The notes under the pieces are model-generated. The model searched no databases. It had not been told where the DNA came from and saw only the letters and a program-made list of their open reading frames with translations. This document shows positions 1 to 44,572 of a DNA stretch of 44,572 nt, one piece after another. The position numbers were made by a program, and so were the translations under genes. The first letter of the stretch is position 1, and the number at the start of each line of letters is the position of its first letter. Location of the stretch: positions 1-44,572 of the IMG/VR virus record IMGVR_UViG_3300033487_000014, one strand, 5' to 3'. Origin of the DNA: a virus. Its lineage: Duplodnaviria; Caudoviricetes.

Positions 1-389
1 GTCAAAAGGAACGAGGACTCGGCAATATCCTCTGAAGTCTCCAAAACTCCCCTTGAGATTTCGTAAGTTTTACCAAAATTGAGGGTTTCATAGCGGACCT
101 GACACCAGGTTTTTGCATCCCGTACCCGCCCGTAAATTTTGGGTCTCACCATCCCGTGATAGAGGTGTTTTACCGACTCAATAAGCGTTTTTCCCCATTG
201 GTTTGCAGGTTTTAAGATATTTATGACCCGGTTTGAGTTTACTACCCACTTATGCTGACCCGGATGGCGGGGAACGTCAATTCCTAAGAAATTTTTAGCA
301 AAAACAGCAATAGCGTCGGGATTATCGGGTTGAATATCCCTAAAAAGCTGTAGGGCGTCTTTAATCTTCTTGTAATCGGCTTTGCTCAA
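1..389 (-). CDS. terL: Terminase large subunit, partial 5' end (variant allele of 42839-44482)
   Basis: Same frame and start as the full copy; contains Walker A ANQWGKT; only two amino-acid differences. Confidence 0.9.
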   Translation of the reverse strand, partial: MSKADYKKIKDALQLFRDIQPDNPDAIAVFAKNFLGIDVPRHPGQHKWVVNSNRVINILKPANQWGKTLIESVKHLYHGMVRPKIYGRVRDAKTWCQVRYETLNFGKTYEISRGVLETSEDIAESSFLL

Positions 390-479
390 GGACTTCTCCT
401 AGTTCTTTGACCCCAATTATCGTAGATTTACCACAATGGGGGCATTGTATGGAGGGAATAAAACCCCCAAAAAGCGAGT
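1..479. repeat. Terminal direct repeat, left copy (matches 44094-44572)
   Basis: Manual ungapped alignment at offset 44093: 24 mismatches in 1-353, identical over 354-479. Confidence 0.95.
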
Positions 480-876
480 TTACAAATCTTTCTAATGCGT
501 CTTTTTGTTTTGTGGTCTCATCCTGCTTGAGTTTGACAAGTTCTGATTGTAACCAGTCCCTAACGCTCACAGATTCCGGATTAAGAAGGATTTTTTTGAA
601 TACCCGGGTAGCCAACTCCTTTTGAATCCGGTCATATCCGACCTTCCCTTCAGCAAAATCCTGTAAAAGGTCCTTATCTTCCTTAGTGAGTCCATCCGGA
701 GGAGGTAAAAGGCGTCGTCTCTGAGCCATTTCCTGAACTAAATACTTATAAAAAGTGTCTGTGTTTGAGTAACCTGCGGCTTTATGATATTTTTTGGCAG
801 CCTCCGTACAACCATTCTCGTTTGCATAAGCAAGAATGTCCTCTCTCTCAGGTTCCGGTAGGTCCTTCCATTTCAT
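361..876 (-). CDS. Putative terminase small subunit
   Basis: Directly upstream of and overlapping terL; helical/HTH-like N-terminus and C-terminal CPHC knuckle. ATG 876 chosen because an extended -10 lies 6 nt upstream. Confidence 0.65.
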   Translation of the reverse strand: MKWKDLPEPEREDILAYANENGCTEAAKKYHKAAGYSNTDTFYKYLVQEMAQRRRLLPPPDGLTKEDKDLLQDFAEGKVGYDRIQKELATRVFKKILLNPESVSVRDWLQSELVKLKQDETTKQKDALERFVNSLFGGFIPSIQCPHCGKSTIIGVKELGEVLEQSRLQED

Positions 877-882
877 AAACGC

Positions 883-891
883 ATAATAGCA
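883..891 (-). promoter_or_regulatory. Extended -10 promoter, probably leaderless terS mRNA
   Basis: TG-C-TATTAT, 6 nt, then ATG; no Shine-Dalgarno (SD) sequence. Confidence 0.55.
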
Positions 892-931
892 CAAATTTCT
901 AAAAAATCGCCGTAAATTATTTTCTAACTAG

Positions 932-975
932 AAATAAAAACAAGAACCCCCGTATATTATTACAGGGGTTGCTTG
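932..975 (-). terminator. Intrinsic terminator
   Basis: Minus strand AACCCCUGUA-auaaua-UACGGGGGUU (one G-U pair, valid only on this strand) followed by CUUGUUUUUAUUU. Confidence 0.7.
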
Positions 976-1019
976 CATCCTACCTTTTCTCTGGTAGGAT
1001 GGGGTTATGACTTATCTAA
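934..1019 (-). ncRNA. Candidate ~85-nt antisense small RNA
   Basis: Upstream promoter (1026-1054), perfect 9-bp hairpin 976-1001 and terminator 932-975; complementary to 1655-1689. Confidence 0.55.
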
Positions 1020-1025
1020 GTTATA

Positions 1026-1054
1026 TTCATAGCAGATTCCTAGCAGAAAGTCAA
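1026..1054 (-). promoter_or_regulatory. Sigma70-type promoter for the candidate sRNA
   Basis: TTGACT-N17-TATGAA with TG extension; the -10 is imperfect. Confidence 0.5.
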
Positions 1055-1284
1055 GTGGAGTGCCAGTAACAGGTGCTCCTTTTTTGTACCTTTAAAAGAT
1101 AATATTTCTGACGTACCTACCCGTATATGGTAGCAAATGGATTTGAATTAATACACAATCGGATAATAGTGCGGTTTATTTCAATTCCGTAAGTGCCAAA
1201 TCCAACGTAATCGGGTCGGGGGGATAGTACATCGCTTTTTCTTTTTTTTTCTTTTATCTATCAATTTAATACAACAAGTATAGG

Positions 1285-1306
1285 TGCGTTAATTATGCGG
1301 TAATTA
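1285..1306. promoter_or_regulatory. Tandem 11-bp repeat, candidate protein-binding site
   Basis: TGCGTTAATTA TGCGGTAATTA; paralogous sites at 1506 and 34336. Confidence 0.6.
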
Positions 1307-1505
1307 TTCACCAAAGGTGTGAGGGCTATTACTACACACCACCCCCCTCCCCTCTTCACTTGAGCTACCCCTACCCTATGGCGGTATTATAATAGATAAC
1401 AGATGTCGTTATATTATATTGATATGTATATTATAGCAAGCAAGGGGAGAGAAAAGTAGCATACCTTTTTAATGGATATCGCCTATTACATAATCATACA
1501 GATAG

Positions 1506-1527
1506 TGCGGGAATTGTGCGGTAATTA
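1506..1527. promoter_or_regulatory. Tandem 11-bp repeat, candidate protein-binding site
   Basis: TGCGGGAATTG TGCGGTAATTA. Confidence 0.6.
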
Positions 1528-1609
1528 ATATACTACATTATCCGGATAATACATCTGTCCGGAGTAAAAACTATGGGGAAATATTTTCAGTACGAATGGT
1601 AGAAACCTA

Positions 1610-1637
1610 TTGACATTTATAGGGAAAGTGCTACAAT
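1610..1637 (+). promoter_or_regulatory. Early sigma70 promoter
   Basis: TTGACA-N16-TACAAT with TG extension. Confidence 0.75.
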
Positions 1638-1688
1638 ATTCTATATAAGACGCAAGGGGTTGCATCTTGTGAAATGGGGTGATGACTT

Positions 1689-2102
1689 ACGATACTACAA
1701 TACAATTACACAACTAAAAAACCTTATGAGGGTAGAAATCAAGTTGAACTTACCATAGCTAAAATTAATAACAATTATACGTCTGACGCTTGGTTGACCT
1801 ACTTACAAGCAAGGTCTGCCGGATTGCAGGTTGTCAAAGGTTCTCACGGGGTAAGTATCTTCAAAGGTTTTGGCAAGGTTGACGACTTAGACGATACCGG
1901 CAAGGTCAAGACTCATTCTGCCCCGTTAGGGTTTGCGAGGGTGTTTAACCTAGACCAGACTAAACCGGTTGACTTTGAGATTGAGGTTCCGGCGGAAATG
2001 TCCGGAGGGATTACCAGCCCATTCGAGCAGATTGTCGAGGGATTAAAGTTAAGAGAAGTTGAAAGCGGAGAAATACCGCTACCGGCTGGAATGTCAGACT
2101 AG
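1689..2102 (+). CDS. ArdC-like N-terminal ssDNA-binding (antirestriction-type) protein
   Basis: Frame is open upstream of the track ORF: QYNYTTKKPYEGRNQVEL...WLTYLQA...LQVVKGSHG...VFNLDQT, typical of ArdC-N. Start appears non-canonical (ACG 1689 or ATA 1692) after SD GGGGTGA. Confidence 0.75.
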   Translation, partial: TILQYNYTTKKPYEGRNQVELTIAKINNNYTSDAWLTYLQARSAGLQVVKGSHGVSIFKGFGKVDDLDDTGKVKTHSAPLGFARVFNLDQTKPVDFEIEVPAEMSGGITSPFEQIVEGLKLREVESGEIPLPAGMSD

Positions 2103-2154
2103 CCGTTTTATAGTGCCGGCATTGAGCAGATACCGGCATTATTAAGACGGGATA
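2100..2154 (+). other. Long intergenic RNA hairpin
   Basis: CCGTTTTA-TAGTGCCGG ... CCGGCATTA-T-TAAGACGG with G-U pairs on the + strand. Confidence 0.6.
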
Positions 2155-2227
2155 GTTATCAACTAGGGTTATTTTAAAAGCTCACCGGTCATTGTAGAGT
2201 GCCGGATTTAGCGGAAATGGGAAAATA

Positions 2228-2317
2228 ATGGCATTACAGATATGTATTGAGATTTTAATATTAACGTGGTTAGTCTTTGAAATTATAGACGAATTGAGGG
2301 GAGATGATAAAAAATGA
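2228..2317 (+). CDS. Small membrane peptide (29 aa)
   Basis: MALQICIEILILTWLVFEIIDELRGDDKK; stop overlaps the next start (ATGA). Confidence 0.55.
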   Translation: MALQICIEILILTWLVFEIIDELRGDDKK

Positions 2318-2637
2318 AATTATTAACTAAAGAGATTTTACAGCAGTTTGAAAAGACCGGCTCACAAGAGGGTACAAAAGACCCGCTAGTAATAGCGAAG
2401 TTTTTCAACCCCGCCGGTGCTGGTACTTGGTATGCTACGGAGTATATACCACAAGACCGGACATTTTTCGGATATGTTTCACTATTCGGAGATTACAACG
2501 ACGAGTGGGGTTATTTTAGTTTAGACGAGCTGGAGGGATACAAAGGTCAATGGGGTTTGGGTATTGAGCGGGATATATACGGGAGCGGTAAGAGATTGAG
2601 CGAGTATAAAATTAATAGTTTGAAAGGTGGTGAGTAA
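2314..2637 (+). CDS. DUF2958-family protein
   Basis: KFFNPAGAGTWYATEY...FFGYV...EWGYFSLDEL...IERD pattern. Confidence 0.8.
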   Translation: MKLLTKEILQQFEKTGSQEGTKDPLVIAKFFNPAGAGTWYATEYIPQDRTFFGYVSLFGDYNDEWGYFSLDELEGYKGQWGLGIERDIYGSGKRLSEYKINSLKGGE

Positions 2638-2640
2638 ATA

Positions 2641-3099
2641 ATGAGCGGAATTATTAGTAAATATTTTAAGCCGGCGAGGGGTCAGTTTGATAGGGTTATC
2701 GAGTGCGGGGATTATATTTCTAACGGTTTTATTGCCATTAGAAAAGAGTTTGCAGGGTCAATGTGTAAGCCGTTTTATTCTGCATACCTAGAAAAAAAAG
2801 ACGCTGGAGAAACAAGCTGTATTGAGTCCGGCAAGATTGAGCAGTTAATACCGGAACAGCTTATAGAGGGCAAGTTAACTAACAGAATTGTCTTGGATTA
2901 TGCCCTAGCTAAAGTCGAGATTGTAGCAAAGCCGGAGGAGGGTTGGGAGCTGAAAGTCTATCTTGACGCTAGGTATGCAGGGATATTCGAGAATTATACC
3001 CCGTTAGTTAGTCCGGTTGATAGTGATACAAAGCCGGTTGTTTACAAGTCCGGTGATGTAATTGTCGGTATTGTAATGCCGATAAAAGTTGAAAATTGA
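2641..3099 (+). CDS. Hypothetical protein with sliding-clamp-like C-terminal motif
   Basis: SD GGTGGTGA; SNGFIAIR near the start and VGIVMPIK at the end. Confidence 0.6.
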   Translation: MSGIISKYFKPARGQFDRVIECGDYISNGFIAIRKEFAGSMCKPFYSAYLEKKDAGETSCIESGKIEQLIPEQLIEGKLTNRIVLDYALAKVEIVAKPEEGWELKVYLDARYAGIFENYTPLVSPVDSDTKPVVYKSGDVIVGIVMPIKVEN

Positions 3100-3110
3100 A
3101 AGGGGGTTAA

Positions 3111-3239
3111 ATGAACCGAAGAGCCATAATTGCTATGTTGCGGGAATGTGGACGGGATGTAACTATCGCTTGTTGGGGCGAAACAAGAGTCCGGAACGCC
3201 GTAAGATATCAGAGGGCAAAAGGTCTTATGACTTACTAG
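3111..3239 (+). CDS. Hypothetical protein (42 aa)
   Basis: SD GGGGGT then ATG; MNRRAIIAMLRECGRD...LMTY; ends at a hairpin. Preferred over track ORF 3089-3289. Confidence 0.5.
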   Translation: MNRRAIIAMLRECGRDVTIACWGETRVRNAVRYQRAKGLMTY

Positions 3240-3292
3240 CCGTTTGGTGCTGTCCGTTATTCAAGCGGGTAACGGATGGCATTAAATGACTA
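3237..3292 (+). other. Long intergenic RNA hairpin
   Basis: 25 of 26 positions pair (many G-U) around an AAGC loop. Confidence 0.7.
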
Positions 3293-3318
3293 AATTAAAT
3301 TGAAAGGTGGTGATGGTA

Positions 3319-3564
3319 GTGAAAGCAGTAGTAAGAATAGACTACAGAATAAACGAACACGAAGAATGGGAAAACGAAGAGTTGTTTGACGATATAGAAA
3401 GGGCATTGGAGTTCTACGAACAGCTAGACGGCTCACGGGTAGATTTTGACGGAGCTACGGATATACAAATCAGTTTAACAAGAGCCAACCCCGATAACCT
3501 ATATCACGAAGATGACGGCTCACTAAACTACGAAGATAACAGCACGTTATATACAGACAAGTGA
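3319..3564 (+). CDS. Acidic hypothetical protein
   Basis: ORF with SD GGTGGTGA; GTG start inferred from spacing. Confidence 0.65.
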   Translation: MKAVVRIDYRINEHEEWENEELFDDIERALEFYEQLDGSRVDFDGATDIQISLTRANPDNLYHEDDGSLNYEDNSTLYTDK

Positions 3565-3596
3565 GGTTATAAATTAAATTAAAGGAGGTGATTACA

Positions 3597-4142
3597 ATGG
3601 GACTTGATATGTATTTGCATAGAAAAACCTATGTTAAAAATTGGGAACATATGAAACCGGAAGAACTACATAGTGTGTTGGTTAAAAAGGGCGGTGAGGT
3701 CAGAGAGGATATTGCTCCGGCAAAGGTAAGCGAGGTTGTTGAGGAGTTTGGTTATTGGAGAAAAGCTAACGCAATTCATAATTGGTTTGTTGAGAATGTT
3801 CAAGATGGGGAAGATGATTGTAAAGAGTACAGCGTAAGTGAGGAAGATTTGAAAGAGCTTTTGAGTGTGGTTAATACGGTACTTGACGCATCAGAGTTGA
3901 TTGACGGCGATGTGGTTAATGGCTACAAAGGCACAGCAGAGGGCTGGAAACCTTGCCTCGAAAAGGGAAAGACTATTAAAAATCCAGCCGTGGCGAAGAA
4001 ATTACTACCGGTAACGGAGGGGTTTTTCTTTGGTTCTACAGATTACGACCAGTGGTATTACGGGGAGCTAGTAGAGACCAAGAAAATCCTAGAAGAGGCA
4101 TTAAAAGCTGGCGGTGATTTCTATTATGAGAGTAGTTGGTAG
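3597..4142 (+). CDS. Conserved phage protein (MGLDMYL / YWRKANAIHNWF family)
   Basis: MGLDMYL...YWRKANAIHNWF...GFFFGS..YD..Y...YESSW; SD AGGAGGTGA. Confidence 0.8.
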   Translation: MGLDMYLHRKTYVKNWEHMKPEELHSVLVKKGGEVREDIAPAKVSEVVEEFGYWRKANAIHNWFVENVQDGEDDCKEYSVSEEDLKELLSVVNTVLDASELIDGDVVNGYKGTAEGWKPCLEKGKTIKNPAVAKKLLPVTEGFFFGSTDYDQWYYGELVETKKILEEALKAGGDFYYESSW

Positions 4143-4191
4143 GACTTGCGTTGTAATGTAAAAAATTGCAAGTGTAAGGAGGTGAAAGCAA

Positions 4192-4503
4192 GTGTGGTTC
4201 TGTAAAGAATGTAAATATACAACTGAATGGACTATGAAAGATGTTGAGAATAGAGGAACACCGGTTTGTCTGGAGTGTGATGTGGATATGAACTGGATTG
4301 ATACAGAGATTTGTTACGAGTGTGGACGGAGTGTTAAAGGTGGGTCGGGGCGGTTTGCTAACAGAATACCATCTCTTGATAGCTACGAAGAGCGGGTTGA
4401 TATGGGCGTACAGTATCCGGAGGGGGAATGGCTTTGTGATGAGTGCGACCAGCACGCACAGGATGGGGACGAGGAATATTTTAGCAAGTTTACTAGGGAA
4501 TAG
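4192..4503 (+). CDS. Cys-rich putative zinc-binding protein
   Basis: Four CxxC pairs; SD AGGAGGTGA. Confidence 0.7.
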   Translation: MWFCKECKYTTEWTMKDVENRGTPVCLECDVDMNWIDTEICYECGRSVKGGSGRFANRIPSLDSYEERVDMGVQYPEGEWLCDECDQHAQDGDEEYFSKFTRE

Positions 4504-4578
4504 GTTGGCGGGTGGGGGTTTGTGTTCGCTAATCGGCAAGCCCTCACCATATAAATTACGGTTAGCAGAAAGGGGTTT

Positions 4579-5010
4579 ATGACCAAAATGCTTAATGTAA
4601 CAGAGTATGAGTTAAAGACCTACACTGGGTATTTAGACAGCTTGTGGGAAGAATACAACGGCAAGACCGGCGAGCAACCGTTTAGTATTACTAAACTGGA
4701 AACCGGCGGGTATGTGTTTGACCTTGACGAAGAGTTTGAAGAGTTTGCCAAAGATACTGACCACGATTGCCGAACACCGCAAGGGCAAGGGTGTAGTTTT
4801 TGTTATTTCTTGCAGGAAATTGGGGTACTGCCGGATTATGATTACTACCCTGATGACCGAGATGATGTAGAGCCGGAAGATGAGGGCGGACACCCTAATT
4901 CCGAGTATTTAGCGGGTAAAGCAGAGGAGATAAGAGACGCTATGAGGGAAAATGGCGACCCGAGGGGTTATCAGAAAGGGGGCGATAATAATGACGGAAA
5001 AATTAGCTAA
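4579..5010 (+). CDS. Acidic hypothetical protein
   Basis: ORF with SD AGGGG; HDC...GCSFC motif. Confidence 0.65.
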   Translation: MTKMLNVTEYELKTYTGYLDSLWEEYNGKTGEQPFSITKLETGGYVFDLDEEFEEFAKDTDHDCRTPQGQGCSFCYFLQEIGVLPDYDYYPDDRDDVEPEDEGGHPNSEYLAGKAEEIRDAMRENGDPRGYQKGGDNNDGKIS

Positions 5011-5158
5011 ATGGGTTGTAAAGGATTTGAGAGCGATAGAACGGGCATTGTTGTTAAATAACCTCATACATTGGGCTATAGCAAACTTAGAGGGGCAATA
5101 TATGAAGGATTTTGTTGATACTGTAAATAAGTTCAAAAGAGAAACGGAGGAAAAATGA
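4991..5158 (+). CDS. Hypothetical protein
   Basis: SD GGGGGCGA then ATG; coupled to the next gene. Confidence 0.55.
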   Translation: MTEKLAKWVVKDLRAIERALLLNNLIHWAIANLEGQYMKDFVDTVNKFKRETEEK

Positions 5159-5343
5159 GTAAATGGTTTGTGATGGTGTTTGCCGTATTAAGTGGGTTTC
5201 TGTTTTGTTGGGATTGTGTTTTGTTAAGTATAGTTTCACAGCAGGAACGTACTATTGAGGAGCTACAAAATACAATTCAGTTACTCAACAGAGATAAAGA
5301 ACAGACTCCTTATGGGGAATTACTTATGAGGAGGTTAGCGTGA
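5155..5343 (+). CDS. Membrane-anchored coiled-coil protein
   Basis: Hydrophobic N-terminus and heptad-like C-terminus; SD GGAGG. Confidence 0.6.
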   Translation: MSKWFVMVFAVLSGFLFCWDCVLLSIVSQQERTIEELQNTIQLLNRDKEQTPYGELLMRRLA

Positions 5344-5411
5344 TTGACTATATTTTAGCAGGGGGTTTTATAGGTTTGATGATAATGCTTCTTATCATCG
5401 GAAAGGACTAA
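5340..5411 (+). CDS. Small membrane peptide (23 aa)
   Basis: SD GGAGGT then GTG; MIDYILAGGFIGLMIMLLIIGKD. Confidence 0.5.
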   Translation: MIDYILAGGFIGLMIMLLIIGKD

Positions 5412-5573
5412 ATGACAATGCTAGAACTTGAAGCCATTACCGCATTGATTTTCTCGTTTCGTGAGGCGATGGACGAGATTGGGGTAGAACCTGAAAAGGT
5501 TACAAAAGTGTTAGAGTTAGTGAACGAGAAATTAAAGGTAAAATTGGAGGAGGTAAAAAATAATGAAATATGA
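5412..5573 (+). CDS. Hypothetical protein (53 aa)
   Basis: SD AAGGA; fills the gap between neighbours. Confidence 0.55.
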   Translation: MTMLELEAITALIFSFREAMDEIGVEPEKVTKVLELVNEKLKVKLEEVKNNEI

Positions 5574-5949
5574 ACCGAAGGACATCTTAATAGGACTGGG
5601 TAAAGCCCGTATTGACGCCTATAATCACAAGTTAGAGGCTGATGGGATTTACTATGAGGCGGAGGAAAAGTTTAAGGCTATGAAAGCTGATGTAATGCTC
5701 TCCAACGCAGTATCCGGTTTGGGTAGCAGGGAAATGAGGGAGGCACAGGCTGACCTCGTGCTGTCTAATATGGACGGCTACAAAGACTACCTTGTAAAGA
5801 AACTGGCAAGCAAGCGTGCTTATGAGCGACAGGCTATGATAGGCGACCTTATAGGGATTGCCAAGACTCTCGCTAACGGGAGTATGTTGGATAGGGACGC
5901 CGGAGCTTTGTTGGAGGGAATAGATGAGAAAACAGTGGAAAGGGACTAG
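5563..5949 (+). CDS. Helical hypothetical protein
   Basis: SD GGAGGAGG; 128-aa ORF. Confidence 0.7.
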   Translation: MKYEPKDILIGLGKARIDAYNHKLEADGIYYEAEEKFKAMKADVMLSNAVSGLGSREMREAQADLVLSNMDGYKDYLVKKLASKRAYERQAMIGDLIGIAKTLANGSMLDRDAGALLEGIDEKTVERD

Positions 5950-6118
5950 AAAAAAGCTGGACGCCATCGTCTTTCTCTATTCAGAGGGCTTGAACAGTAC
6001 GCAGATACAGAAACAGCTCAAAATCCCGAGTTCTTCGTATTGGCGTATCCTTGCCGACGGTGGCGGTATGCCCATTTGGGCTAGAATGGACCACTTTAGG
6101 AAGTTAGGTAAGATTTGA
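5924..6118 (+). CDS. Small helix-turn-helix protein
   Basis: LYSEGLNSTQIQKQLKIPSSSYWRIL HTH pattern. Confidence 0.6.
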   Translation: MRKQWKGTRKKLDAIVFLYSEGLNSTQIQKQLKIPSSSYWRILADGGGMPIWARMDHFRKLGKI

Positions 6119-6143
6119 CAAAACAGGCTATATAGGATACTAT
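6115..6143 (+). promoter_or_regulatory. Sigma70 promoter, probably leaderless
   Basis: TTGACA-N17-TACTAT; ATG 8 nt downstream; no SD. Confidence 0.75.
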
Positions 6144-6151
6144 GTATCATA

Positions 6152-6415
6152 ATGAAGAAGAAACACAGACCGACACAGATAGTATCTTTTGAGGACGCTC
6201 CGGATTGGCTACTGGCATCTCAGGTTATGCGGTATTTGGGCGTTTCCAAGATGACTGTTTATCATCTGATGGAACAGGGAGTTATAAAGGCAATACTGGT
6301 TAACCGTCCCAATGCGTTACGGGTTAGTTATCGTTTCTCTAAGGAGGACGTAGAAAAGATAAGGGGTAAGCAATTATACTTTGCCGGTGGGAAGATGAGA
6401 GCTTACGAAAAGTAA
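6152..6415 (+). CDS. Excisionase-like (HTH_17/MerR-like) DNA-binding protein
   Basis: WLLASQVMRYLGVSKMTVYHLMEQGVIKA...YRFSKEDV. Confidence 0.75.
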   Translation: MKKKHRPTQIVSFEDAPDWLLASQVMRYLGVSKMTVYHLMEQGVIKAILVNRPNALRVSYRFSKEDVEKIRGKQLYFAGGKMRAYEK

Positions 6416-6693
6416 TGCCGTTAAATAAATCTACAAGCGTGGTGGCTAATAAACACTGGTTAAAGAACGGCAAGAGGTTCTTTGTAATGTGCAAGACGGC
6501 AGGGCTAGATGGGGAGAATACAAAGACCTATTACGAAAATCTACTGGGAGTCCATCACCTAAAGGATTTTAGTGAGTCGCAGTGGGATTATATCTTCGAC
6601 GAGTTGGAGTACGAGATTAAAAAGAAAGCGGAAGAGGACGGGGTTTTATTTGCTAAAGATTTAACAGAAGCGATGAACGCTGTACTAAATTAA
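6415..6693 (+). CDS. Hypothetical protein
   Basis: Coupled ORF (TAATG). Confidence 0.65.
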   Translation: MPLNKSTSVVANKHWLKNGKRFFVMCKTAGLDGENTKTYYENLLGVHHLKDFSESQWDYIFDELEYEIKKKAEEDGVLFAKDLTEAMNAVLN

Positions 6694-6712
6694 GTTTAAG
6701 AAAGGACGAAAT

Positions 6713-7273
6713 ATGCCTATAAGTGCAACACAGTCCGTTGTTAAAAACGAGGGTACTGGGTTTACGCCGGTTCCACAAGGCGTGTATGATGTAGAGATTG
6801 TGGATATCAATTTTAAGCCCAAAGAGGAGCAGAAACCGGGCAAGTTTGAGCCTAAAGATAAGTATTACATTACTTTAGGAATACTCAATGAGGGGGAATA
6901 CCGTGGGAAAGCTCTCACGCATTTTGTCTCCACATCTTACAATGCCGGCTTTAGTGGTGGTCAATCTTCTAAACTTTACGACCTTGCTTGTGCGGTAATG
7001 GATATAAAGTTAGACGATAAAGAAGAATTGGACCTAAATACCTTAGTTGGCGGGACGTTTATGATTGTGGTTAAGGATAAGAGCACGGCTGATGGTAAGG
7101 TTTTCAGTAACATCGCCGAGGTTATGAGTCTAACTAAAGGTAAGACCGTCAAACACTTAACAGAAGAGGAATTAAAGGCTTGTATGCCTAAATCCGGAGA
7201 TGATGTGTCTGATATTCCATTAGACCTGCCGGACCTAAATCCCACTTTGGGGAAAGTCAGTAAGAAGAAATAG
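6713..7273 (+). CDS. Putative phage ssDNA-binding protein (DUF669-like OB fold)
   Basis: FTPVPQGVYDVEIVD...LVG...VFSNI with acidic DDVSDIP tail. Confidence 0.65.
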   Translation: MPISATQSVVKNEGTGFTPVPQGVYDVEIVDINFKPKEEQKPGKFEPKDKYYITLGILNEGEYRGKALTHFVSTSYNAGFSGGQSSKLYDLACAVMDIKLDDKEELDLNTLVGGTFMIVVKDKSTADGKVFSNIAEVMSLTKGKTVKHLTEEELKACMPKSGDDVSDIPLDLPDLNPTLGKVSKKK

Positions 7274-7466
7274 TATTTCTATCCAGCCTCCCGCACTGTC
7301 GGAGGTTGGGTTAGGGACATTATTGAGAGCAGAATGGGGGACGGAAATAACAATCGACTCAACTCTTTTGGGCAGGTCCGTCTCCCATCCTGAACTTGAT
7401 TTGTAGGTATGTCCCCTCTTACCGGACGGGCTACTACCCGCCTAGTAATAAGGGATATGCCCACAA
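7271..7466 (+). other. Three consecutive long RNA hairpins
   Basis: CCAGCCTCC/GGAGGTTGG; ATGGGGGACGGA/TCCGTCTCCCAT; GGTATGTCCC/GGGATATGCC. Confidence 0.6.
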
Positions 7467-7576
7467 TGTATCAACCAACAGAACAGGAAAGTTTAATGAT
7501 AGTGATTTTTGTGTTTGTAATTTTGCCTCTTGTATGGCTTTGGGCGTGTAAAGGATTAAATGAAAGGAAACCATAA
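7466..7576 (+). CDS. Small membrane peptide (36 aa)
   Basis: MYQPTEQESLMIVIFVFVILPLVWLWACKGLNERKP; stop overlaps the next ATG. Confidence 0.5.
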   Translation: MYQPTEQESLMIVIFVFVILPLVWLWACKGLNERKP

Positions 7577-7830
7577 TGGATAAAAGGATTGAGGAAAAGA
7601 TTGAGAGTTTATTAAATGAGTACGCCAAGAGTCCTTATTTAGAAGGTTCTGGCGGTATTACTCAATACCAAGTAGTCCAAGCCCTCACAAAGCTGGTGGA
7701 AGATGAGAAGGTGGTTGTGATAAACAAATTAAGGGAGTGGTACAAAGACGACAAAGTAGCGTTGAAAGATTTTGAAATAGCCCTAACCAAATTAGATAAG
7801 GAGGAAAATGGAACAATCAGAAAAAATTGA
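7576..7830 (+). CDS. Hypothetical protein
   Basis: SD AAGGA; 84-aa ORF. Confidence 0.65.
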   Translation: MDKRIEEKIESLLNEYAKSPYLEGSGGITQYQVVQALTKLVEDEKVVVINKLREWYKDDKVALKDFEIALTKLDKEENGTIRKN

Positions 7831-8065
7831 TACTTTAATAAAGGTTGCTAAGAAGTATAAAATTGATAGACCGAAACCCTACGCTAAAGTGGAATATTGG
7901 GATTCAGTAAATGAAAGGATACAGGTTATAGAGTTTGGTGGGGATAAGGAGGTATCAGGTTGGGAATATAGCGGAGTGAAAGCACCGAGCAAGTTGGCGT
8001 GGTTTTTGCTAGGTACAGCGTGGGCTGCTCTAATAATTTGGATGGTTATTTGGTTTAGCAAATGA
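7808..8065 (+). CDS. Hypothetical protein with C-terminal transmembrane helix
   Basis: SD GGAGG; hydrophobic C-terminus. Confidence 0.65.
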   Translation: MEQSEKIDTLIKVAKKYKIDRPKPYAKVEYWDSVNERIQVIEFGGDKEVSGWEYSGVKAPSKLAWFLLGTAWAALIIWMVIWFSK

Positions 8066-10941: not shown

Positions 10942-11251
10942 CCGGGAACGTAAGATTAAACAAGAGCTTGAGGGGGAGGGGTATGCCCTTGTAGTGAGAA
11001 CAGCCGGTAGTCATTCCCCCGTGGATGTGATAGCAATAAAAGAAATGGCGGTGATTCCTGGTTGGGGACTGTGCTTTACAGGTAAACTGGTCCAATCTAA
11101 AACGTCAACAAGGTTTAAGCACATCAGAAAAATTGAGGAGTCTATCGAGACTAAAAATGGAAGTATAATTTACGAAAGATGGGAGTTTCCCACGAATGAA
11201 AAAAGGATTAAGCATATCAACCCTAAACGACGACGAACTGCAAAGCAGTAA
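10910..11251 (+). CDS. Holliday junction resolvase-like (Hjc-type) nuclease
   Basis: YQRGYNRERKIKQELE..GY..VRTAGSHSPVDVIAI...LVQSK. Confidence 0.8.
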   Translation: MPNLAYQRGYNRERKIKQELEGEGYALVVRTAGSHSPVDVIAIKEMAVIPGWGLCFTGKLVQSKTSTRFKHIRKIEESIETKNGSIIYERWEFPTNEKRIKHINPKRRRTAKQ

Positions 11252-24676: not shown

Positions 24677-25499
24677 CTTTTTTAACCTCCGGTTCAAACT
24701 TTTTAGGTACGGTAAGAGGATACATCCTGCCGGTGTCGTCAATATGCCTCACAAAAATCCTTGTATCTACCAGAAATGGGTTTTCCATTTCCTGATACTT
24801 CTTCCATCCGGCTTTCTCAAAATACTTACCCTCTATCACCCGTCTGCACCACATCAGGTCCGATGTTCCGCTTTCACTTCTCATCATTCCTGTTTTCTCG
24901 TCAAACCAAACTTTAGCGGGAGCGTCAAATACACGCCTTACCTTCATACCGCCAGCACTGTATTCGGGAGAATCTTTATACATCTCCTTGATAATGGACA
25001 TATTTATCAGTATCGTACCCGTGGGTACTCCTGTAGCCCATACAAGGTCTCCCATCTTCCATTTGTCGTAATGTCCGTTCCCGGCTCCCCGGTATATCAT
25101 AGGTTCCGGAGGCACCGACTTTGTAAAATACAGACCTGATACTACTGGTATTTTACTCTCTATCATATACTCGTTCAAACGCAAAAAACAATCCGGGGGC
25201 AAGACATTATCCTGTTCTATCAATACCAACCACTCAACGTCGAGTTCTATGGCTTTTTGCACAATGATGTTTTGAGCGTCTGCCACCAAAAACCTAAGAG
25301 GAGCTACAGATGCAATCCAGGGACGTAGTTCCTGTTGAGACCAGTTAGTAGGAATTGTCTGTCCCCACCTTCCCATCGCCCACTCAATCCTCACAAGACC
25401 CGTTACGGGAGTTCCTATAAGAAGCCTAGACCTCCAATACCCCGTGTTTTCTATTATCTGACCGGTAAGGTCAGTTACTACTTTAGCTTGCTTTTTCAT
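24630..25499 (-). CDS. GT-A fold glycosyltransferase (GT2-like)
   Basis: LLIGTP...VADAQNIIV...LVLIEQDNVLPPD...VVSGLYF...GTILI...SDLMWC...VDT. Confidence 0.8.
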   Translation of the reverse strand: MKKQAKVVTDLTGQIIENTGYWRSRLLIGTPVTGLVRIEWAMGRWGQTIPTNWSQQELRPWIASVAPLRFLVADAQNIIVQKAIELDVEWLVLIEQDNVLPPDCFLRLNEYMIESKIPVVSGLYFTKSVPPEPMIYRGAGNGHYDKWKMGDLVWATGVPTGTILINMSIIKEMYKDSPEYSAGGMKVRRVFDAPAKVWFDEKTGMMRSESGTSDLMWCRRVIEGKYFEKAGWKKYQEMENPFLVDTRIFVRHIDDTGRMYPLTVPKKFEPEVKKDAVRNKRTRKHKSSR

Positions 25500-26092
25500 T
25501 TTTCCACCTCCGCTATAAGTACCTCGTTCCTGGTTACAGAGCCTTTAGGAAACTTCTGAGACCCGATAGGAGGTATAGGTTTATGCTTTGGTACCAACGT
25601 CAACGTGCCCTTCTTAAATCCTGCGGTCAGCAAACACCAGTTAAGAAACTGCGGATTAAGAGCGACCCTGTGATACTCCTCAAACGCCTGTTGGTTTCCG
25701 TAAATGGTCTCCATAACCTGAAAGTAGATGTTAGGGTCAAACTTTCCTGTCATCACTTCCAGCCAATCCTTCATAAGACCGTCAAAGTTCGGACTCGTCA
25801 TTACAAACTTAGCTCCCGGTTTCATCACACGCCTGATTTCCACCAGTGCCGGCACCACATCCCGCATTGGCAGGTGTTCTAATACCTCAAACATTTCCAC
25901 ATAATTTGCGTAGTTGTCCTTAAAGGGCATCTTCCTAATGTCAGCTTTAACATATTTAGCACCCCTATCCCATTTTACAGACCTAAAGATACCCTTCTTG
26001 CTCTTTAAATCCGATTCCTCGTACAGGTCCACATTCACAAAGTCCTTTTTAATATGGATTCCACAGCCTAAATTTAACCGTATTTTATTCAT
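25496..26092 (-). CDS. Class I SAM methyltransferase
   Basis: RLNLGCG, VNVD, DIRKMPF, VLEH, RRVMKPGA. Confidence 0.9.
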   Translation of the reverse strand: MNKIRLNLGCGIHIKKDFVNVDLYEESDLKSKKGIFRSVKWDRGAKYVKADIRKMPFKDNYANYVEMFEVLEHLPMRDVVPALVEIRRVMKPGAKFVMTSPNFDGLMKDWLEVMTGKFDPNIYFQVMETIYGNQQAFEEYHRVALNPQFLNWCLLTAGFKKGTLTLVPKHKPIPPIGSQKFPKGSVTRNEVLIAEVEK

Positions 26093-26630
26093 ATTTTACT
26101 TTCCCACTTGCGTGAAAAGTTTTGTCGTCTCTCATTTTTACGAGCAAAACTTCTAAATTGCCCTCCTCTACCCATCCTATGTTCTCAACTTTCCAGGGAG
26201 CGGGCTCGTAGGTATAGTACAAAGCCGCCCCGTCTATGACCTTTAGGGGGTCAAAATAGTACCAGGTTACTTCATTACAGCCGTTGATGTGAGACGGGTC
26301 CTGCCAGTAACCAAGAGAACCAGCATAAGGTGTAGACACCATAAGCTGTCCCCCGTATTTTGTTATCCTCCAAACTTCATCCATCCATCTGAGAAACCCC
26401 TCGTGTCGTGGGTCTATATGTTCTACCACCTGGGTAGCAACAACAAGGTCTGCCGTATTAGACGGTATTTCCCAGGGGAATTTCTCAGGGTCTATCACTA
26501 CATCAGCGTTCGGGTTGGGCTTAAAGGATATGTTAATGAAGTTCCGCTTTAAGTCCGCAATATTACCAAGTTGTATATTGACAAAATTCTTTGTCTCAAT
26601 CAGCTTTTTGATTTTTTCTTTATCCGTCAT
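26085..26630 (-). CDS. Class I SAM methyltransferase (motif I degenerate)
   Basis: FPW, VVEHI, EVWRITKYGG, QDPSH; motif I reads IQLGNIA. Confidence 0.8.
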   Translation of the reverse strand: MTDKEKIKKLIETKNFVNIQLGNIADLKRNFINISFKPNPNADVVIDPEKFPWEIPSNTADLVVATQVVEHIDPRHEGFLRWMDEVWRITKYGGQLMVSTPYAGSLGYWQDPSHINGCNEVTWYYFDPLKVIDGAALYYTYEPAPWKVENIGWVEEGNLEVLLVKMRDDKTFHASGKVKYE

Positions 26631-26652
26631 AAATCCTTTCTTCCATACAAAA

Positions 26653-26708
26653 GACCTTGCAACTCTAACGTCTCCGAAAAAGTTACAAGGTCGTTAGTGG
26701 AGACGTTA
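26653..26708 (-). other. Interleaved inverted repeats (pseudoknot or switchable terminator)
   Basis: 12-bp pair 26653-64/26681-92 and 10-bp pair 26666-75/26699-708, in X-Y-X'-Y' order. Confidence 0.75.
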
Positions 26709-26724
26709 ATACTACTAACCTACA

Positions 26725-27225
26725 TCAGGAAAACCTAAGTTCGTAAGTACAGTTTACAGATTGGTTACTCTGTAAGGTGCTTTGGGTATAGGTTTGTCCT
26801 GCTATGATTGTACCCTGTGTTATAGACGAAACAGCAAACAACCCAATGTTTTGAATCGCCTGTGTCGTCGAGAAATAACCTGAAGTTAATGTCCCAACGA
26901 ACCTTGCGGTCTTGCTCGATACCGCCGTAGGTGTAAGTGCAACCCTAATGCTCGATGATGCTGTTCCACCAGTGAGTTCACTTCCAAGACCTGTTGCGTT
27001 AGAGGCTGTCGTAGTACCCGACCCCAAAGCTACATACTGTGGATATACAGGTGTTACGGATGCAACACTTCCGACCCTTCCAACTATACAGGATTCATAC
27101 CCATAGTTAGTAATCTGATTTTCCAACCATCCGCTATCTCCTACAACCTTAGCTTCGCCGCTATCGTGTTCTACAATATTTAGCCTAAAAAAGCCACTTA
27201 CTTTTGAATTATCGTGCATCTTCAT
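26725..27225 (-). CDS. Beta-rich structural protein (putative fibre subunit)
   Basis: NQITNYG...YVALGSG...IGLF...YELRF pattern of phage structural proteins; Ser/Thr-rich; SD AAGGAGGTGA. Confidence 0.6.
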   Translation of the reverse strand: MKMHDNSKVSGFFRLNIVEHDSGEAKVVGDSGWLENQITNYGYESCIVGRVGSVASVTPVYPQYVALGSGTTTASNATGLGSELTGGTASSSIRVALTPTAVSSKTARFVGTLTSGYFSTTQAIQNIGLFAVSSITQGTIIAGQTYTQSTLQSNQSVNCTYELRFS

Positions 27226-27305
27226 TTCTACTCACCTCCTTAATATAAAAAATAGTAACTCCACACTAATATTAAAACTATCAAGGCTCTGACACAACTT
27301 CGACA

Positions 27306-29324
27306 CTAGATATCCGCCTTATTAGACAGTACAATCCCCGGTCCATAGGCATCCGTGAGGATTCTGATAACCTCGGAGGCATAGATGTACGGGACTGTAA
27401 GTGTCTTACCCTCCCACCGCTCCATACCTATAGAAACCATAACAGGCATACTCGTCTCAATCTTATACATAGTTTCTTTCTCAATCTCGATAGCCTCACG
27501 TACAGGTGCGGGATGTTCCCTAGCCCGGTGTTTGAAAAGCTCAAATGCCGTCTTAAACTGCTTGGAGCAAAGATTACAAGTGTTCATAGGAATTTCCTTT
27601 CTTAAAGCATAGAACTTTTGTTCGTAAACATCCACTAATGTACGCCAGTCAAATCCGTGTGCCCGTTCCATACCGGCTTTTCTGTACTCCTCCAACTTCT
27701 CCTTGTTGGTAAGAAGTCCTACAACAGCCTTAATGTAGTCTCCCTTGTAATTCTCGTGCTCGGGATGGTAGCCAATTACAATTCCGCCTTCCCCGACAGT
27801 AAACTTCATAGAACCGATGTCAGAAGTTACCGGAACTGCTCCGGCAGCCATACACTCAAGAGCGGAGATGCAGAAATTCTCATCATAATTGCAGGTATAG
27901 GGCATTAACTCCGAGGTTAGCTGGTGCTCTACCATAACACTCCGGGGAACCCTGCCTAAATAGTGGATTCCGTAAGCCCGCATCTCATCTGCGGTTTGTC
28001 TTTGTACCGCATTATCCGGGTCCTTGCCTCCCCAAAGCGTGTAATCTGCGGTAATCCACAAACTTGCATTAGGAACCTGCCTTTTAATCTCGGGGAACCA
28101 TTTTAAAATATAGTCCAGTCCCCGCTTAGGAACCGAACAGAAAACCATCTTGCCGGGAACTTTCTCTGGTATCTTCTCATAATCATATCCGTTTAATCCG
28201 TTATACATAATATCAATCTTGTTGCTCTTAATAGAGTAGTGATTAAGGATGTAGCTCTTGTGGTAAGGGGAAACACAGAACATCCGGTCTATCAGGGGGA
28301 ATATATCGGTCTCCCAGTTAGGACTGGTCCATTGGTCGTGGCTAAAGAAAATACGGGTTCCGCAGTACATATTAGTTACAGATGGATGATAATTTCTGTA
28401 GAGAATAAAGATGTCTGCAAAGATGTCTACATCCAAATGTGCCAGGTTGTACCAGTACACGCCGTTATACATCCCCTCATTTGTGGTGTCGTTATAGACC
28501 TCTACAAGATGCCCCTTCTTTACAAGCTCCCGGGTAAGACAAATCAATGTTGCCTCAGAACCCCCAACCCCCCTGCCCTCGTAGGATGAGTCGTTGAAGT
28601 CGTTATCCGGACAGTTAAACACAATAACTATCCGCAACTTGTCTTTTTTCTCCAAGCTGGCAAGTTTATTCTCCCAAACCTTTTGAGCAGTCTTAGTCAT
28701 CTCCTCAATATCTTTTAACCTAGACACCGTCTTAGAGCCAAAATGCTCTACTCCGGGGTCTATGTATTCCAATGTATAGCCAAGCAGTTTGAATGATACT
28801 GACAACCACCCGTCCTCAAAGAATCCCTTGCCGAAATCCTCATCCCACGGACCGGGGAGCTTGTCGAAATCCTCTTTAGCCCCAAACACACACCAACCTT
28901 CAAGGTAATCGGTACACCTGCCTCTCCACTCAGTCCACATATTGCCTTTGACCAGTTTACCCCCGTATATCACGTTAGGATTGAGCTTTTTGGCATCAAC
29001 AAACCTCTTTAACCACAAAGAATTGAGTACAATTATGTCGTTGTTAATGAATATGACAAACTTCCCCCGTGCTTTAGCAAAGCCCTTATTGTTACCCCCA
29101 CTGAACCCCAAATTATGCGTTAGCAGTATAGGCACGAGTCTGCTATCTTTTTTACTATAAGCTGCCAATTTCTCCCCAGTTCCGTCTGTAGAACCGTTAT
29201 CAACTACAATTAATTCATAATCTACATTTTCAGTTTTACTCAGGATGCTGTCAATGGCGGGCTTAGTGTACTCCTCATACAAACCCCACCCTAACATCAC
29301 TATAGACACCTCCGGACTGCTCAC
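27306..29324 (-). CDS. GT2-GT4 glycosyltransferase fusion with C2H2 finger and small C-terminal domain
   Basis: VVDNGSTDG, FINND (GT2); GGSE, ENFCISALECMAAG (GT4); CNLC..FELFKHRAREH. Confidence 0.92.
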   Translation of the reverse strand: MSSPEVSIVMLGWGLYEEYTKPAIDSILSKTENVDYELIVVDNGSTDGTGEKLAAYSKKDSRLVPILLTHNLGFSGGNNKGFAKARGKFVIFINNDIIVLNSLWLKRFVDAKKLNPNVIYGGKLVKGNMWTEWRGRCTDYLEGWCVFGAKEDFDKLPGPWDEDFGKGFFEDGWLSVSFKLLGYTLEYIDPGVEHFGSKTVSRLKDIEEMTKTAQKVWENKLASLEKKDKLRIVIVFNCPDNDFNDSSYEGRGVGGSEATLICLTRELVKKGHLVEVYNDTTNEGMYNGVYWYNLAHLDVDIFADIFILYRNYHPSVTNMYCGTRIFFSHDQWTSPNWETDIFPLIDRMFCVSPYHKSYILNHYSIKSNKIDIMYNGLNGYDYEKIPEKVPGKMVFCSVPKRGLDYILKWFPEIKRQVPNASLWITADYTLWGGKDPDNAVQRQTADEMRAYGIHYLGRVPRSVMVEHQLTSELMPYTCNYDENFCISALECMAAGAVPVTSDIGSMKFTVGEGGIVIGYHPEHENYKGDYIKAVVGLLTNKEKLEEYRKAGMERAHGFDWRTLVDVYEQKFYALRKEIPMNTCNLCSKQFKTAFELFKHRAREHPAPVREAIEIEKETMYKIETSMPVMVSIGMERWEGKTLTVPYIYASEVIRILTDAYGPGIVLSNKADI

Positions 29325-30238
29325 TTGAATACCTCCTCCAAAATCAAATTACACCTATCTTGATAGGTATTCTTACCTGTTGTTACAGCTTTCCACCCTC
29401 TGTCGGCAATCTCCTTCCAAATGTCGGTAGATACCAAACTAACTGCTTTATCTGCCACACCCCCATAAATACCCCTATTTTCATTAAAAGAGGCATAACA
29501 GTCCCTCGGTATGATATGTTCGATACTGCTTAATTCCGCCTGGTTGTTGGTTAAAACACAATTACCCATAGCAAGCCCTTCCCAAAATCTTGCCGGGAGG
29601 TCCTCAAGGGACGACCAGTTGAACGCAATCTTGCCTTTATTATAGGTCTTGTTATATTCGTCAAAAAGTATGCCCAAAGTGTTAAAAACCTTGAGTCCCC
29701 GACGTTCCATTTCTTTCAAAGCCTGGACCCGATGTTCATACTGCAACCCGATAAACACGACGTCGTAAATCTTCTCCATCCGTGGTATACGTTTATGTAT
29801 CCCAGGCATATAAGCATAAGGTACCCAAAACTTGTTCTTAAAAGAATAACGGTCCATATAGTATTTCTGCATACAGGCAAAGTGAGACGCATCTGCGAGT
29901 CTTGGCAGGTAGTTTACAGAGTGGGGGTCGGTTGCCAGTATCACATTCGGACATAAAGGCTTACCACTAAGGTAGGTGGTATCAGCAGCCTGTAGAACCA
30001 TCTCCGGGTACCACGGCATCCTATTTATCACCGTCTCAATGGGGAAACTTTCAACCTCCGGAATCTCTAAATCCGGTGGGCAATCGTAGTCGGGAAAATC
30101 AAACTCCGGACCCCAGGGTATCTTGCCGCCATTGTAGCAGCCAACAGTAAAAACCTGGTGCCCGAGGTCTTTTAACGCCCAGTCAAAGTATCTGCCCAAA
30201 GCCATAGGAAAATGTCTGTAGTGTAGTAGTATCTTCAC
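29321..30238 (-). CDS. GT-B glycosyltransferase (Glyco_trans_1_2/CgeB-like)
   Basis: YDVVFIG, KIAFN, RFWEGLAMG, IADRG...NTYQDR. Confidence 0.85.
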   Translation of the reverse strand: MKILLHYRHFPMALGRYFDWALKDLGHQVFTVGCYNGGKIPWGPEFDFPDYDCPPDLEIPEVESFPIETVINRMPWYPEMVLQAADTTYLSGKPLCPNVILATDPHSVNYLPRLADASHFACMQKYYMDRYSFKNKFWVPYAYMPGIHKRIPRMEKIYDVVFIGLQYEHRVQALKEMERRGLKVFNTLGILFDEYNKTYNKGKIAFNWSSLEDLPARFWEGLAMGNCVLTNNQAELSSIEHIIPRDCYASFNENRGIYGGVADKAVSLVSTDIWKEIADRGWKAVTTGKNTYQDRCNLILEEVFK

Positions 30239-30744
30239 GGCTTCCTCCCATACGCAAAAATTGAATTGTTAGGTTTCTCTTTGTTCAAATCATTATGGTC
30301 GTAGTAGTATTCCAAGTGAAAATCTGTGTAACCCTCGAACATTTTAGCTACCGCCTCCTCTGTAAATCTGTAATAATCGTGGGGAAAATCGTGCTTAGTA
30401 AAGGAAATACCCGGTACTGTAACAAGCATCCAGCCCCTATGTTTTAGGGCATCTCGCATATTTGCTACTGTAAGCCAAAACATATCGTCGTGCTCCAACG
30501 TCTCACAACAAGTTATGAGGTCAAAACACTCATACCCAAGTGTGTCCAGTTCGTGTCCGTTTAGAACCAGGTCTACCCCAGGTCCAGGTCGCATATCTAT
30601 TCCTGTAAAGTTTACATAAGATGCAGGACTTAGAATATCTTTAACACTACCATTAATATTGTAGGAACCTACATCCAAGACATCCCTAAAGGGAGCAAAT
30701 TTTGCCTCAAATCTTAGTAAAAAATCCTGCACATTTCCGAACAT
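30235..30744 (-). CDS. Class I SAM methyltransferase
   Basis: VLDVGSYNING, GIDM..GPGVD, LEHD, PHDYYRFT. Confidence 0.88.
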   Translation of the reverse strand: MFGNVQDFLLRFEAKFAPFRDVLDVGSYNINGSVKDILSPASYVNFTGIDMRPGPGVDLVLNGHELDTLGYECFDLITCCETLEHDDMFWLTVANMRDALKHRGWMLVTVPGISFTKHDFPHDYYRFTEEAVAKMFEGYTDFHLEYYYDHNDLNKEKPNNSIFAYGRKP

Positions 30745-30745
30745 A

Positions 30746-31243
30746 TTATTCTTTCTGAAGCCGCACTGTCAAACTAAATCCATCATTAACCGACATCAGC
30801 TTCTTAAATTTGAAGGTAATTCCATAAGAAATATAAGCAAAATCTGCCGGGTCTCCGCCTCCCCATTCCCCACAAAAGTAATTGAAAAACCCATCAGTTA
30901 TCTGAGGTCCGCAGTGTGTGGGGTCTTGAGAATGTGTTTCAAAACAACCGGGAACTGAAACGTGCAAAATCCCTCCGGGTACCAAAACCCTGTAAGCCTC
31001 CGCCATAAGATGAACTCTCGGATAGAAAGTCTCCCATTTTTTCGTTGTCTCGTTAAAATGTTCTACCACTGATGGACAGTGTTCCATAATCATCTCCATC
31101 CGCACCTCATCTACAGAACAGTCGGAAACCTTCCACTTCTCCATAGCAACATCCTGGACAATCGTAGTTTTAGGGAACTGTACTCTGTCAATTTGGATAT
31201 CAGCCTCACTATGAGGTCCGGCACCTACATCAAGTTTGACCAT
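30746..31243 (-). CDS. Class I SAM methyltransferase
   Basis: KLDVGAG, MEH, EAYRVLVPGG, QDPTH. Confidence 0.88.
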   Translation of the reverse strand: MVKLDVGAGPHSEADIQIDRVQFPKTTIVQDVAMEKWKVSDCSVDEVRMEMIMEHCPSVVEHFNETTKKWETFYPRVHLMAEAYRVLVPGGILHVSVPGCFETHSQDPTHCGPQITDGFFNYFCGEWGGGDPADFAYISYGITFKFKKLMSVNDGFSLTVRLQKE

Positions 31244-44482: not shown

Positions 44483-44572
44483 GGACTTCTCCTAGTTCTT
44501 TGACCCCAATTATCGTAGATTTACCACAATGGGGGCATTGTATGGAGGGAATAAAACCCCCAAAAAGCGAGT
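44094..44572. repeat. Terminal direct repeat, right copy
   Basis: Matches 1-479. Confidence 0.95.
44454..44572 (-). CDS. 3' end of putative terS (duplicate, partial)
   Basis: Identical to 361-479. Confidence 0.7.
   Translation of the reverse strand, partial: SLFGGFIPSIQCPHCGKSTIIGVKELGEVLEQSRLQED

Follow-up and report, generated by a model that had tools for sequence, protein, structure and literature searches.

A short transcription unit on the minus strand of this phage genome (1054-932 of the window, by which we mean the whole stretch of 44,572 nucleotides analysed) is a probable RNA gene, and its product may act in trans as an antisense RNA of the c4 or sar kind that occludes, by pairing in one block, the ribosome-binding site (RBS) of an early gene encoding an ArdC N-terminal domain (ArdC-N). 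This regulatory model rests on one genome, and we put its chances at about even.

The window is a complete virus record whose two ends overlap, with strain differences. The overlap (1-482 versus 44091-44572) lies inside the terminase gene with ∼7% differences as judged by eye; two strains have been merged into a single circular assembly. Late genes occupy the minus strand, starting from a conserved gene at 876, and encode terminase, portal, capsid, transglycosylase, glycosyltransferases, and a GH25 endolysin; within this operon three glycosyltransferases and three methyltransferases are clustered at 25496-32315 (minus strand). Small early genes lie on the plus strand, driven from a strong promoter at 1610-1637. 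The endolysin and the sigma70 promoters indicate that the host is a bacterium. One named endolysin homolog comes from a Patescibacteria metagenome-assembled genome (MAG), and the phage-bearing samples are wetland and freshwater DNA metagenomes.

The sequence-only reading had envisaged an RNA-only switch standing in for a CI repressor, a proposal for which we found no support. Neither an integrase, a CI-type repressor, nor an antirepressor was found among the 54 window proteins scanned, and two helix-turn-helix (HTH) proteins, at 5924 and 6152, were identified by a protein domain scan. PF00589 was absent from 10/10 genomes (the window and nine relatives), while the positive control was detected in 14/14 genomes. 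A genome scan revealed no prophage form; it returned a single contig, beginning mid-TerL, within an archaeal MAG, where it is probably mis-binned. Because no integrase is present in any of the ten genomes, the small RNA would probably serve early-gene shut-off rather than a lysogeny switch.

The putative RNA gene and its surroundings comprise the following features.

1026..1054, minus strand: putative sigma70-type promoter, with a -35 box TTGACT (1054-1049), a 17-nt spacer, and a TG-extended, imperfect -10 box TATGAA (1031-1026)
932..1019, minus strand: predicted ∼88-nt non-coding RNA from a presumed start, with a free 5′ tail (1019-1002), a hairpin (1001-976), and the terminator
999..1014, minus strand: block 1, an anti-SD/anti-spacer segment, 13/16 nt single-stranded, which forms the predicted duplex
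964..979, minus strand: block 2, complement of leader positions 1655-1666, buried in the 5′ arm of the terminator and the base of the hairpin
932..970, minus strand: intrinsic terminator found by terminator scan, with a 10-bp stem (970-945) and a U-rich tail
1057..1085, plus strand: terminator-like hairpin directly beyond the -35 box, found by scan, with a loop GTAACA also present in the relative L118
1007..1069, plus strand: 20-amino-acid mini-ORF with its stop within the hairpin loop and an SD spacing of ∼1 nt
1148..1225, no strand assigned: non-coding block common to the window and L118 (76% over 84 nt)

The hairpin at 976-1001 (9 bp) is present as it had been described, and the minus-strand terminator, whose U-tail runs to ∼932, was recovered independently by our scan. 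The promoter proposal held for the TTGACT-17-TATGAA arrangement with its TG extension and was weakened by the missing -7 T, the promoter having been missed by the promoter scan; imperfect -10 boxes also occur at other promoters of the phage family, such as the L122 and L105 late promoters. The predicted fold of the minus-strand RNA has an energy of -34.2 kcal/mol (z -5.57), a stability equaled by 0/200 shuffles. Rfam covariance models, a comparison that had been suggested earlier, gave no match at E≤5 over 1-8000. Opposite the RNA, the plus strand of the window holds only the 20-amino-acid ORF, which is probably untranslated and whose peptide is polar by inspection, unlike a hydrophobic type I toxin; the corresponding plus strands of L105, L119, and L120 hold longer ORFs. 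The plus-strand copy of the matching sequence at the RNA locus is not a working RBS, since its start position holds ATC followed by a stop codon.

The predicted target lies on the opposite strand.

1610..1637, plus strand: strong early promoter found by scan, TTGACA-16-TACAAT (11/12, with TG)
1644..1691, plus strand: early leader and predicted target, from a presumed start, with a 5′ hairpin (1644-1671) bearing a GGGG loop, the SD (1676-1682), the spacer, and ACG at 1689
1689..2102, plus strand: gene for an ArdC N-terminal domain only (PF08401), 137 codons, with a likely ACG start

The gene product matched the Pfam family with an E value of 4.9e-14, falls in the PHROG class of anti-restriction proteins, and has an intact frame with all 17 invariant residues of an alignment that itself included the ArdC-N of the window. 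The ATG within the match, at 1682, is not the start of this gene; it is out of the ArdC frame and opens an 11-amino-acid ORF. The open ArdC frame extends back to 1686 and most likely begins at ACG 1689, a position 8 nt from the SD (genes with a clear SD mostly show 5 to 8 nt) that coincides with the modal homolog start, exactly three residues ahead of an aligned Gln (14/33). Two other starts were rejected, namely, a frameshift from ATG 1682 (SD spacing of 1 nt, versus 8 for the ACG) and ATA 1692 (11 nt versus 8); homolog N termini fit the ACG better than either. Gene calls in 4/4 cluster members, from several assemblies, use downstream starts that truncate ArdC-N, and no canonical start is present; it is therefore unlikely that the missing ATG is an error of one contig. 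Since ACG initiates at only 0.1 to 1% of AUG in E. coli, according to the consulted part of 10.1101/063800, ArdC-N is either held very low or recently dead, a conclusion that cuts both ways for a regulatory reading.

Elsewhere among the early genes, an unannotated 29-amino-acid hydrophobic peptide with an SD (2228-2317, plus strand) overlaps the DUF2958 start and is a candidate membrane or exclusion peptide. Long hairpins seen by eye between early genes (2110-2210, 3250-3285, and 4505-4550) recall the RNase III processing sites of T7 early mRNA.

Both blocks of complementarity described in the sequence-only reading were recovered. Positions 999-1014 match 1674-1689 at 15/16, on the SD and spacer of ArdC-N, and in block 2 positions 964-972 equal 1655-1663 (9/9) and 973-979 equal 1660-1666. 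A 15/16 match somewhere in the genome arose in 12/100 Markov genomes, so it is not rare by itself; within the 57-nt leader it arose in 0/2,000 shuffles, and in 28/2,000 when the SD was held fixed. The match extends over the spacer, a segment that varies among other genes. By a rough estimate rather than a computed control, the 15/16 block and the colinear 9-nt second block are jointly beyond chance.

Predicted binding energies computationally support the earlier proposal that the RBS of the first early gene is the target. With accessibility included, the ArdC-N RBS ranked first among 58 gene starts (-16.6 kcal/mol, versus -9.3 for the next), and its site was also the best among the 150 top windows rescored of 2,536 (-16.2 versus -14.2). 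When 178 tail shuffles were scored against 59 starts, none got as low as -15.7 (mean best, -10.7; standard deviation, 1.6), and 0/150 SD-fixed leader shuffles reached -14.96, the nearest attaining -14.86. Predicted binding depends on the RNA start, falling to -4.8 when that start is moved to 1005. The gain of the dimer over the monomers is -15.0 kcal/mol, via block 1. The bipartite pairing proposed by analogy with C4 and CI was not borne out: the most favorable dimer forms through block 1 alone. In the predicted folds, block 2 is taken up by the stem of the terminator and, on the leader side, by that leader's 5′ hairpin, so that it would pair with the leader only in nascent RNA, before the 3′ arm of the terminator exists. 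Forcing both blocks to pair while leaving the remainder open cost 23 kcal/mol relative to the minimum, and such a duplex was rejected.

The additional, weaker targets that had been suggested at 3226 and 4579 are near chance. The 3226 copy sits at the 3′ end of a 42-amino-acid ORF, not at an RBS, and the 4579 site has a predicted binding of -9.3, inside the background. Genome-wide, six matches with ≤3 mismatches were seen versus 5.3 expected, and two non-self matches with ≤2 mismatches versus 0.5 expected. Action of the small RNA on multiple targets is near chance.

Relatives were collected by TerL searches, which yielded 20 loci from viral and 22 from metagenome sequences; the window itself accounts for two of them, and several are duplicates. 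Inspection by eye found a leftward unit of promoter, short RNA, and terminator near the late gene in 4/20 relatives examined. The closest relative, L118 (TerL 83%), has a syntenic copy that aligns nearly gap-free with the window from the terminator through the -35 box, with the same promoter geometry and a good -10 box (TACATT). In its terminator, 3/9 pairs are changed on both sides and none is broken, a comparison of two sequences only. The L118 unit is likely orthologous to that of the window. Further relatives with a TerL identity of 79 to 81% (P0041-P0043) are on contigs of 11 to 21 kb. Its 5′ tail differs from the window tail, the contig stops before the early leader, and a 150-amino-acid plus-strand gene lies between the RNA unit and the late gene.

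The other three units, in L105, L119, and L120, are more distant look-alikes with analogous plus-strand terminators. A covariance model built from them recovered nothing beyond its own members in 803 kb and did not match the window unit, and so these are layout analogs, not shown to be homologs. Early leaders are present in all three, yet no strong trans partner was found for their RNAs (best, -8.9 to -11.0), and a copy of the early leader inside such a unit was found in 0/9 other relatives (eight near-complete and one partial, with leaders delimited by eye). The complementarity, expected to be conserved under the sequence-only reading, was not found in these more distant relatives; comparative support exists for the RNA gene and none for its target. 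Two further non-coding features were noted in relatives. In L105, L119, and L120, two HNH-like genes are immediately followed by a conserved, structured ∼180-nt element of several hairpins that has no Rfam match (in L105, about 11050-11230 of the reversed locus); a segment of the L105 element shows 12/13 complementarity to the terminator loop of the small RNA. Non-coding leaders of 150 to 300 nt stand behind the early promoter in L095, L097, L117, and L122.

Broader searches returned nothing related. In viral contigs, the 16-mer pattern had 28 matches, none related by blastn, the two-block pattern had 10, all unrelated, and a motif common to the window and L118 had one, also unrelated. TerL had no match among 50,697 GenBank phages, single-protein scans found no close relatives carrying the locus, and the single Rfam match in six relatives was a chance one. 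Among 51 ArdC-N loci, the upstream DNA of the 14 inspected contained repeated A-rich start regions and no antisense units. The ArdC-N phages L034, L035, and L039 are without SD motifs, and their early genes share repeated A-rich start regions of up to 32 nt. The sequencing runs listed as carrying the phage include no RNA dataset. Contigs from runs X5 to X8 gave no informative variants, and none of them covers 1633-1859; the X5 contig is identical to the window across 815-1178.

About 45 nt separate the small RNA terminator from the late promoter downstream of it.

361..891, minus strand: conserved first late gene, ATG at 876, with a leaderless extended -10 promoter (TATTAT, 888-883) and no -35 box

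This gene is conserved upstream of TerL in relatives and, by its location, would occupy the position of a terminase small subunit. A promoter survey showed that the window late promoter lacks the -35 box that most relatives have. The first late gene appears leaderless family-wide, its ATG 5 to 7 nt past the -10 box. Between the late and early promoters (1340-1600), a TACC(C)TACCCC-like element precedes low-complexity repeats that extend for several hundred bases, an arrangement also present in L095, L097-L099, L103, L107, L110, L117, L122, L127, and L135. The conserved element and low-complexity region are a candidate genome end or packaging site.

Several other explanations were weighed against pairing in trans. 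The RNA unit could be real and older than the match, with the match a private, functionless short duplication and ArdC-N a fresh pseudogene (ATG to ACG). We consider this possible but unlikely. Two colinear blocks do resemble a copied segment, the second is predicted to be unable to pair in the finished RNA, no comparable match occurs in the nine relatives or the three look-alike units, and a canonical ArdC-N start is missing from all four cluster members. Yet the blocks stand at 15/16 and 9/9 while the intervening sequence is unrelated and structured, which suggests selection; moreover, the better block coincides with the RBS and with the single part of the RNA that is left unpaired, and a pseudogene reading has to accommodate an intact frame with every invariant residue. 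DNA-level function, in which the repeats are operators at which a phage HTH protein acts a short way downstream of each promoter, seems highly improbable. The two HTH genes, the placement of both copies within the first 50 nt after a promoter, and a third copy (12/14) are what it would draw on, whereas the sites are non-palindromic, oppositely oriented to their promoters, and coincident with the SD, and the third copy is distant from any promoter.

The remaining explanations place the regulation at or beside the RNA locus. In a cis antisense/attenuator layout like that of P22 sar or plasmid pT181, a plus-strand transcript (964-1085) carrying a leader peptide would run into the terminator at 1057-1085 under control of the minus-strand RNA. 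A plus-strand terminator does lie just past the -35 box in the window, L105, L119, and L120, and in the latter three a plus-strand ATG is located at the 5′ end of the RNA, with an operon on that strand downstream. In the window, however, the plus-strand promoter candidate scores only 9/12, the mini-ORF is poorly spaced from its SD (∼1 nt), its product does not resemble a hydrophobic type I toxin, and no gene lies between the plus-strand terminator and the early promoter; the failure of the L105-type covariance model to find the window unit likewise speaks against this arrangement, which we judge quite improbable. It is very doubtful that the unit is a late leader of the lambda pR′/tR′ type, on which the early leader RNA acts in trans by docking on the 5′ tail and capturing the 5′ arm of the terminator, giving read-through into the late operon. 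Block 2 is exactly that arm, both blocks pair in nascent RNA (-21.7), and the terminator is close to a late promoter deficient in a -35 box. Nevertheless, termination remains favored by 7.3 kcal/mol (-56.3 versus -49.0) even when the leader is bound, and it prevails as soon as the 3′ arm extends to 948; a leaderless -10 box serves the late gene itself, and in L118 the 150-amino-acid gene intervenes. We give very little credence to a combined model, a trans-acting RNA antiterminator or two-way switch in which the RNA would stop ArdC-N translation and the early leader would open the late operon without a Q-like protein.

Under the preferred model, trans-acting antisense pairing at the ArdC-N RBS, the unit at 1054-932 would give rise to an ∼88-nt RNA whose free 5′ tail would pair in one block with the SD and spacer, blocking ribosome loading. 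The counter-defense gene would then be damped after the first phase of infection, possibly with a polar effect on the early genes that follow. Should the genome terminus fall in the interval from the unit to the early promoter, a location deduced only from the conserved element and the low-complexity sequence in that interval, the RNA gene would be the last to enter the cell, which would build in a delay.

The classical phage antisense RNAs c4, CI, and sar guard lysogeny by silencing antirepressors, and P22 sar is fully complementary to ant mRNA, being made from an overlapping locus. Like sar, the predicted RNA would have its own promoter and terminator and would occlude the translation start of an early gene; unlike sar, its target is at a separate locus, with a 15/16 match. 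The account in PMC12197685, as far as consulted, gives sar as 68/69 nt and the c4 RNA of P1/P7 as 77 nt, the latter with complementary sequences in loops, targeting antirepressor mRNA in the immunity of a temperate phage. The present RNA resembles c4 in size and in its predicted trans pairing around a phage gene RBS (15/16 over the SD and spacer), which would block translation. It differs in using, in the predicted folds, one block in a free 5′ tail rather than two loop-exposed segments, and in addressing ArdC-N (PF08401) rather than an icd/antirepressor operon, in a phage with no integrase and with an RNA that has no Rfam match. The CI RNA of satellite phage P4, in the part of PMC4825925 consulted, is processed from the transcript that it controls by premature termination, with seqA upstream and seqC downstream. 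The two have in common a short phage RNA and two complementary blocks in an early or lytic leader; here, in contrast, the RNA belongs to a divergent unit 640 nt away that has a promoter and terminator of its own, and the second block is sequestered. Type I toxin-antitoxin loci differ in having an overlapping ORF for a small hydrophobic toxin.

In pLS20-family plasmids, establishment genes are under the control of a Reg repressor/EGeRS2 and of EGeRS1, as set out in the portion of PMC8708921 consulted. That control relies on a protein repressor or a long structured cis element on plasmids, and the same portion describes no trans antisense RNA; the shared outcome would be that ardC expression is kept transient after DNA entry. 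By this analogy, a one-block shut-off of ArdC-N is consistent with the transient expression of ardC-type establishment genes (PMC8708921, same portion). In the parts of the literature that our search covered, no work on this phage family or on antisense RNA against ardC was found. If the model is correct, a small RNA would time-limit a counter-defense gene in a phage family without an integrase, atop the restraint of a weak ACG start, and would represent an RNA answer to the known need for transient expression of ArdC-type establishment genes.
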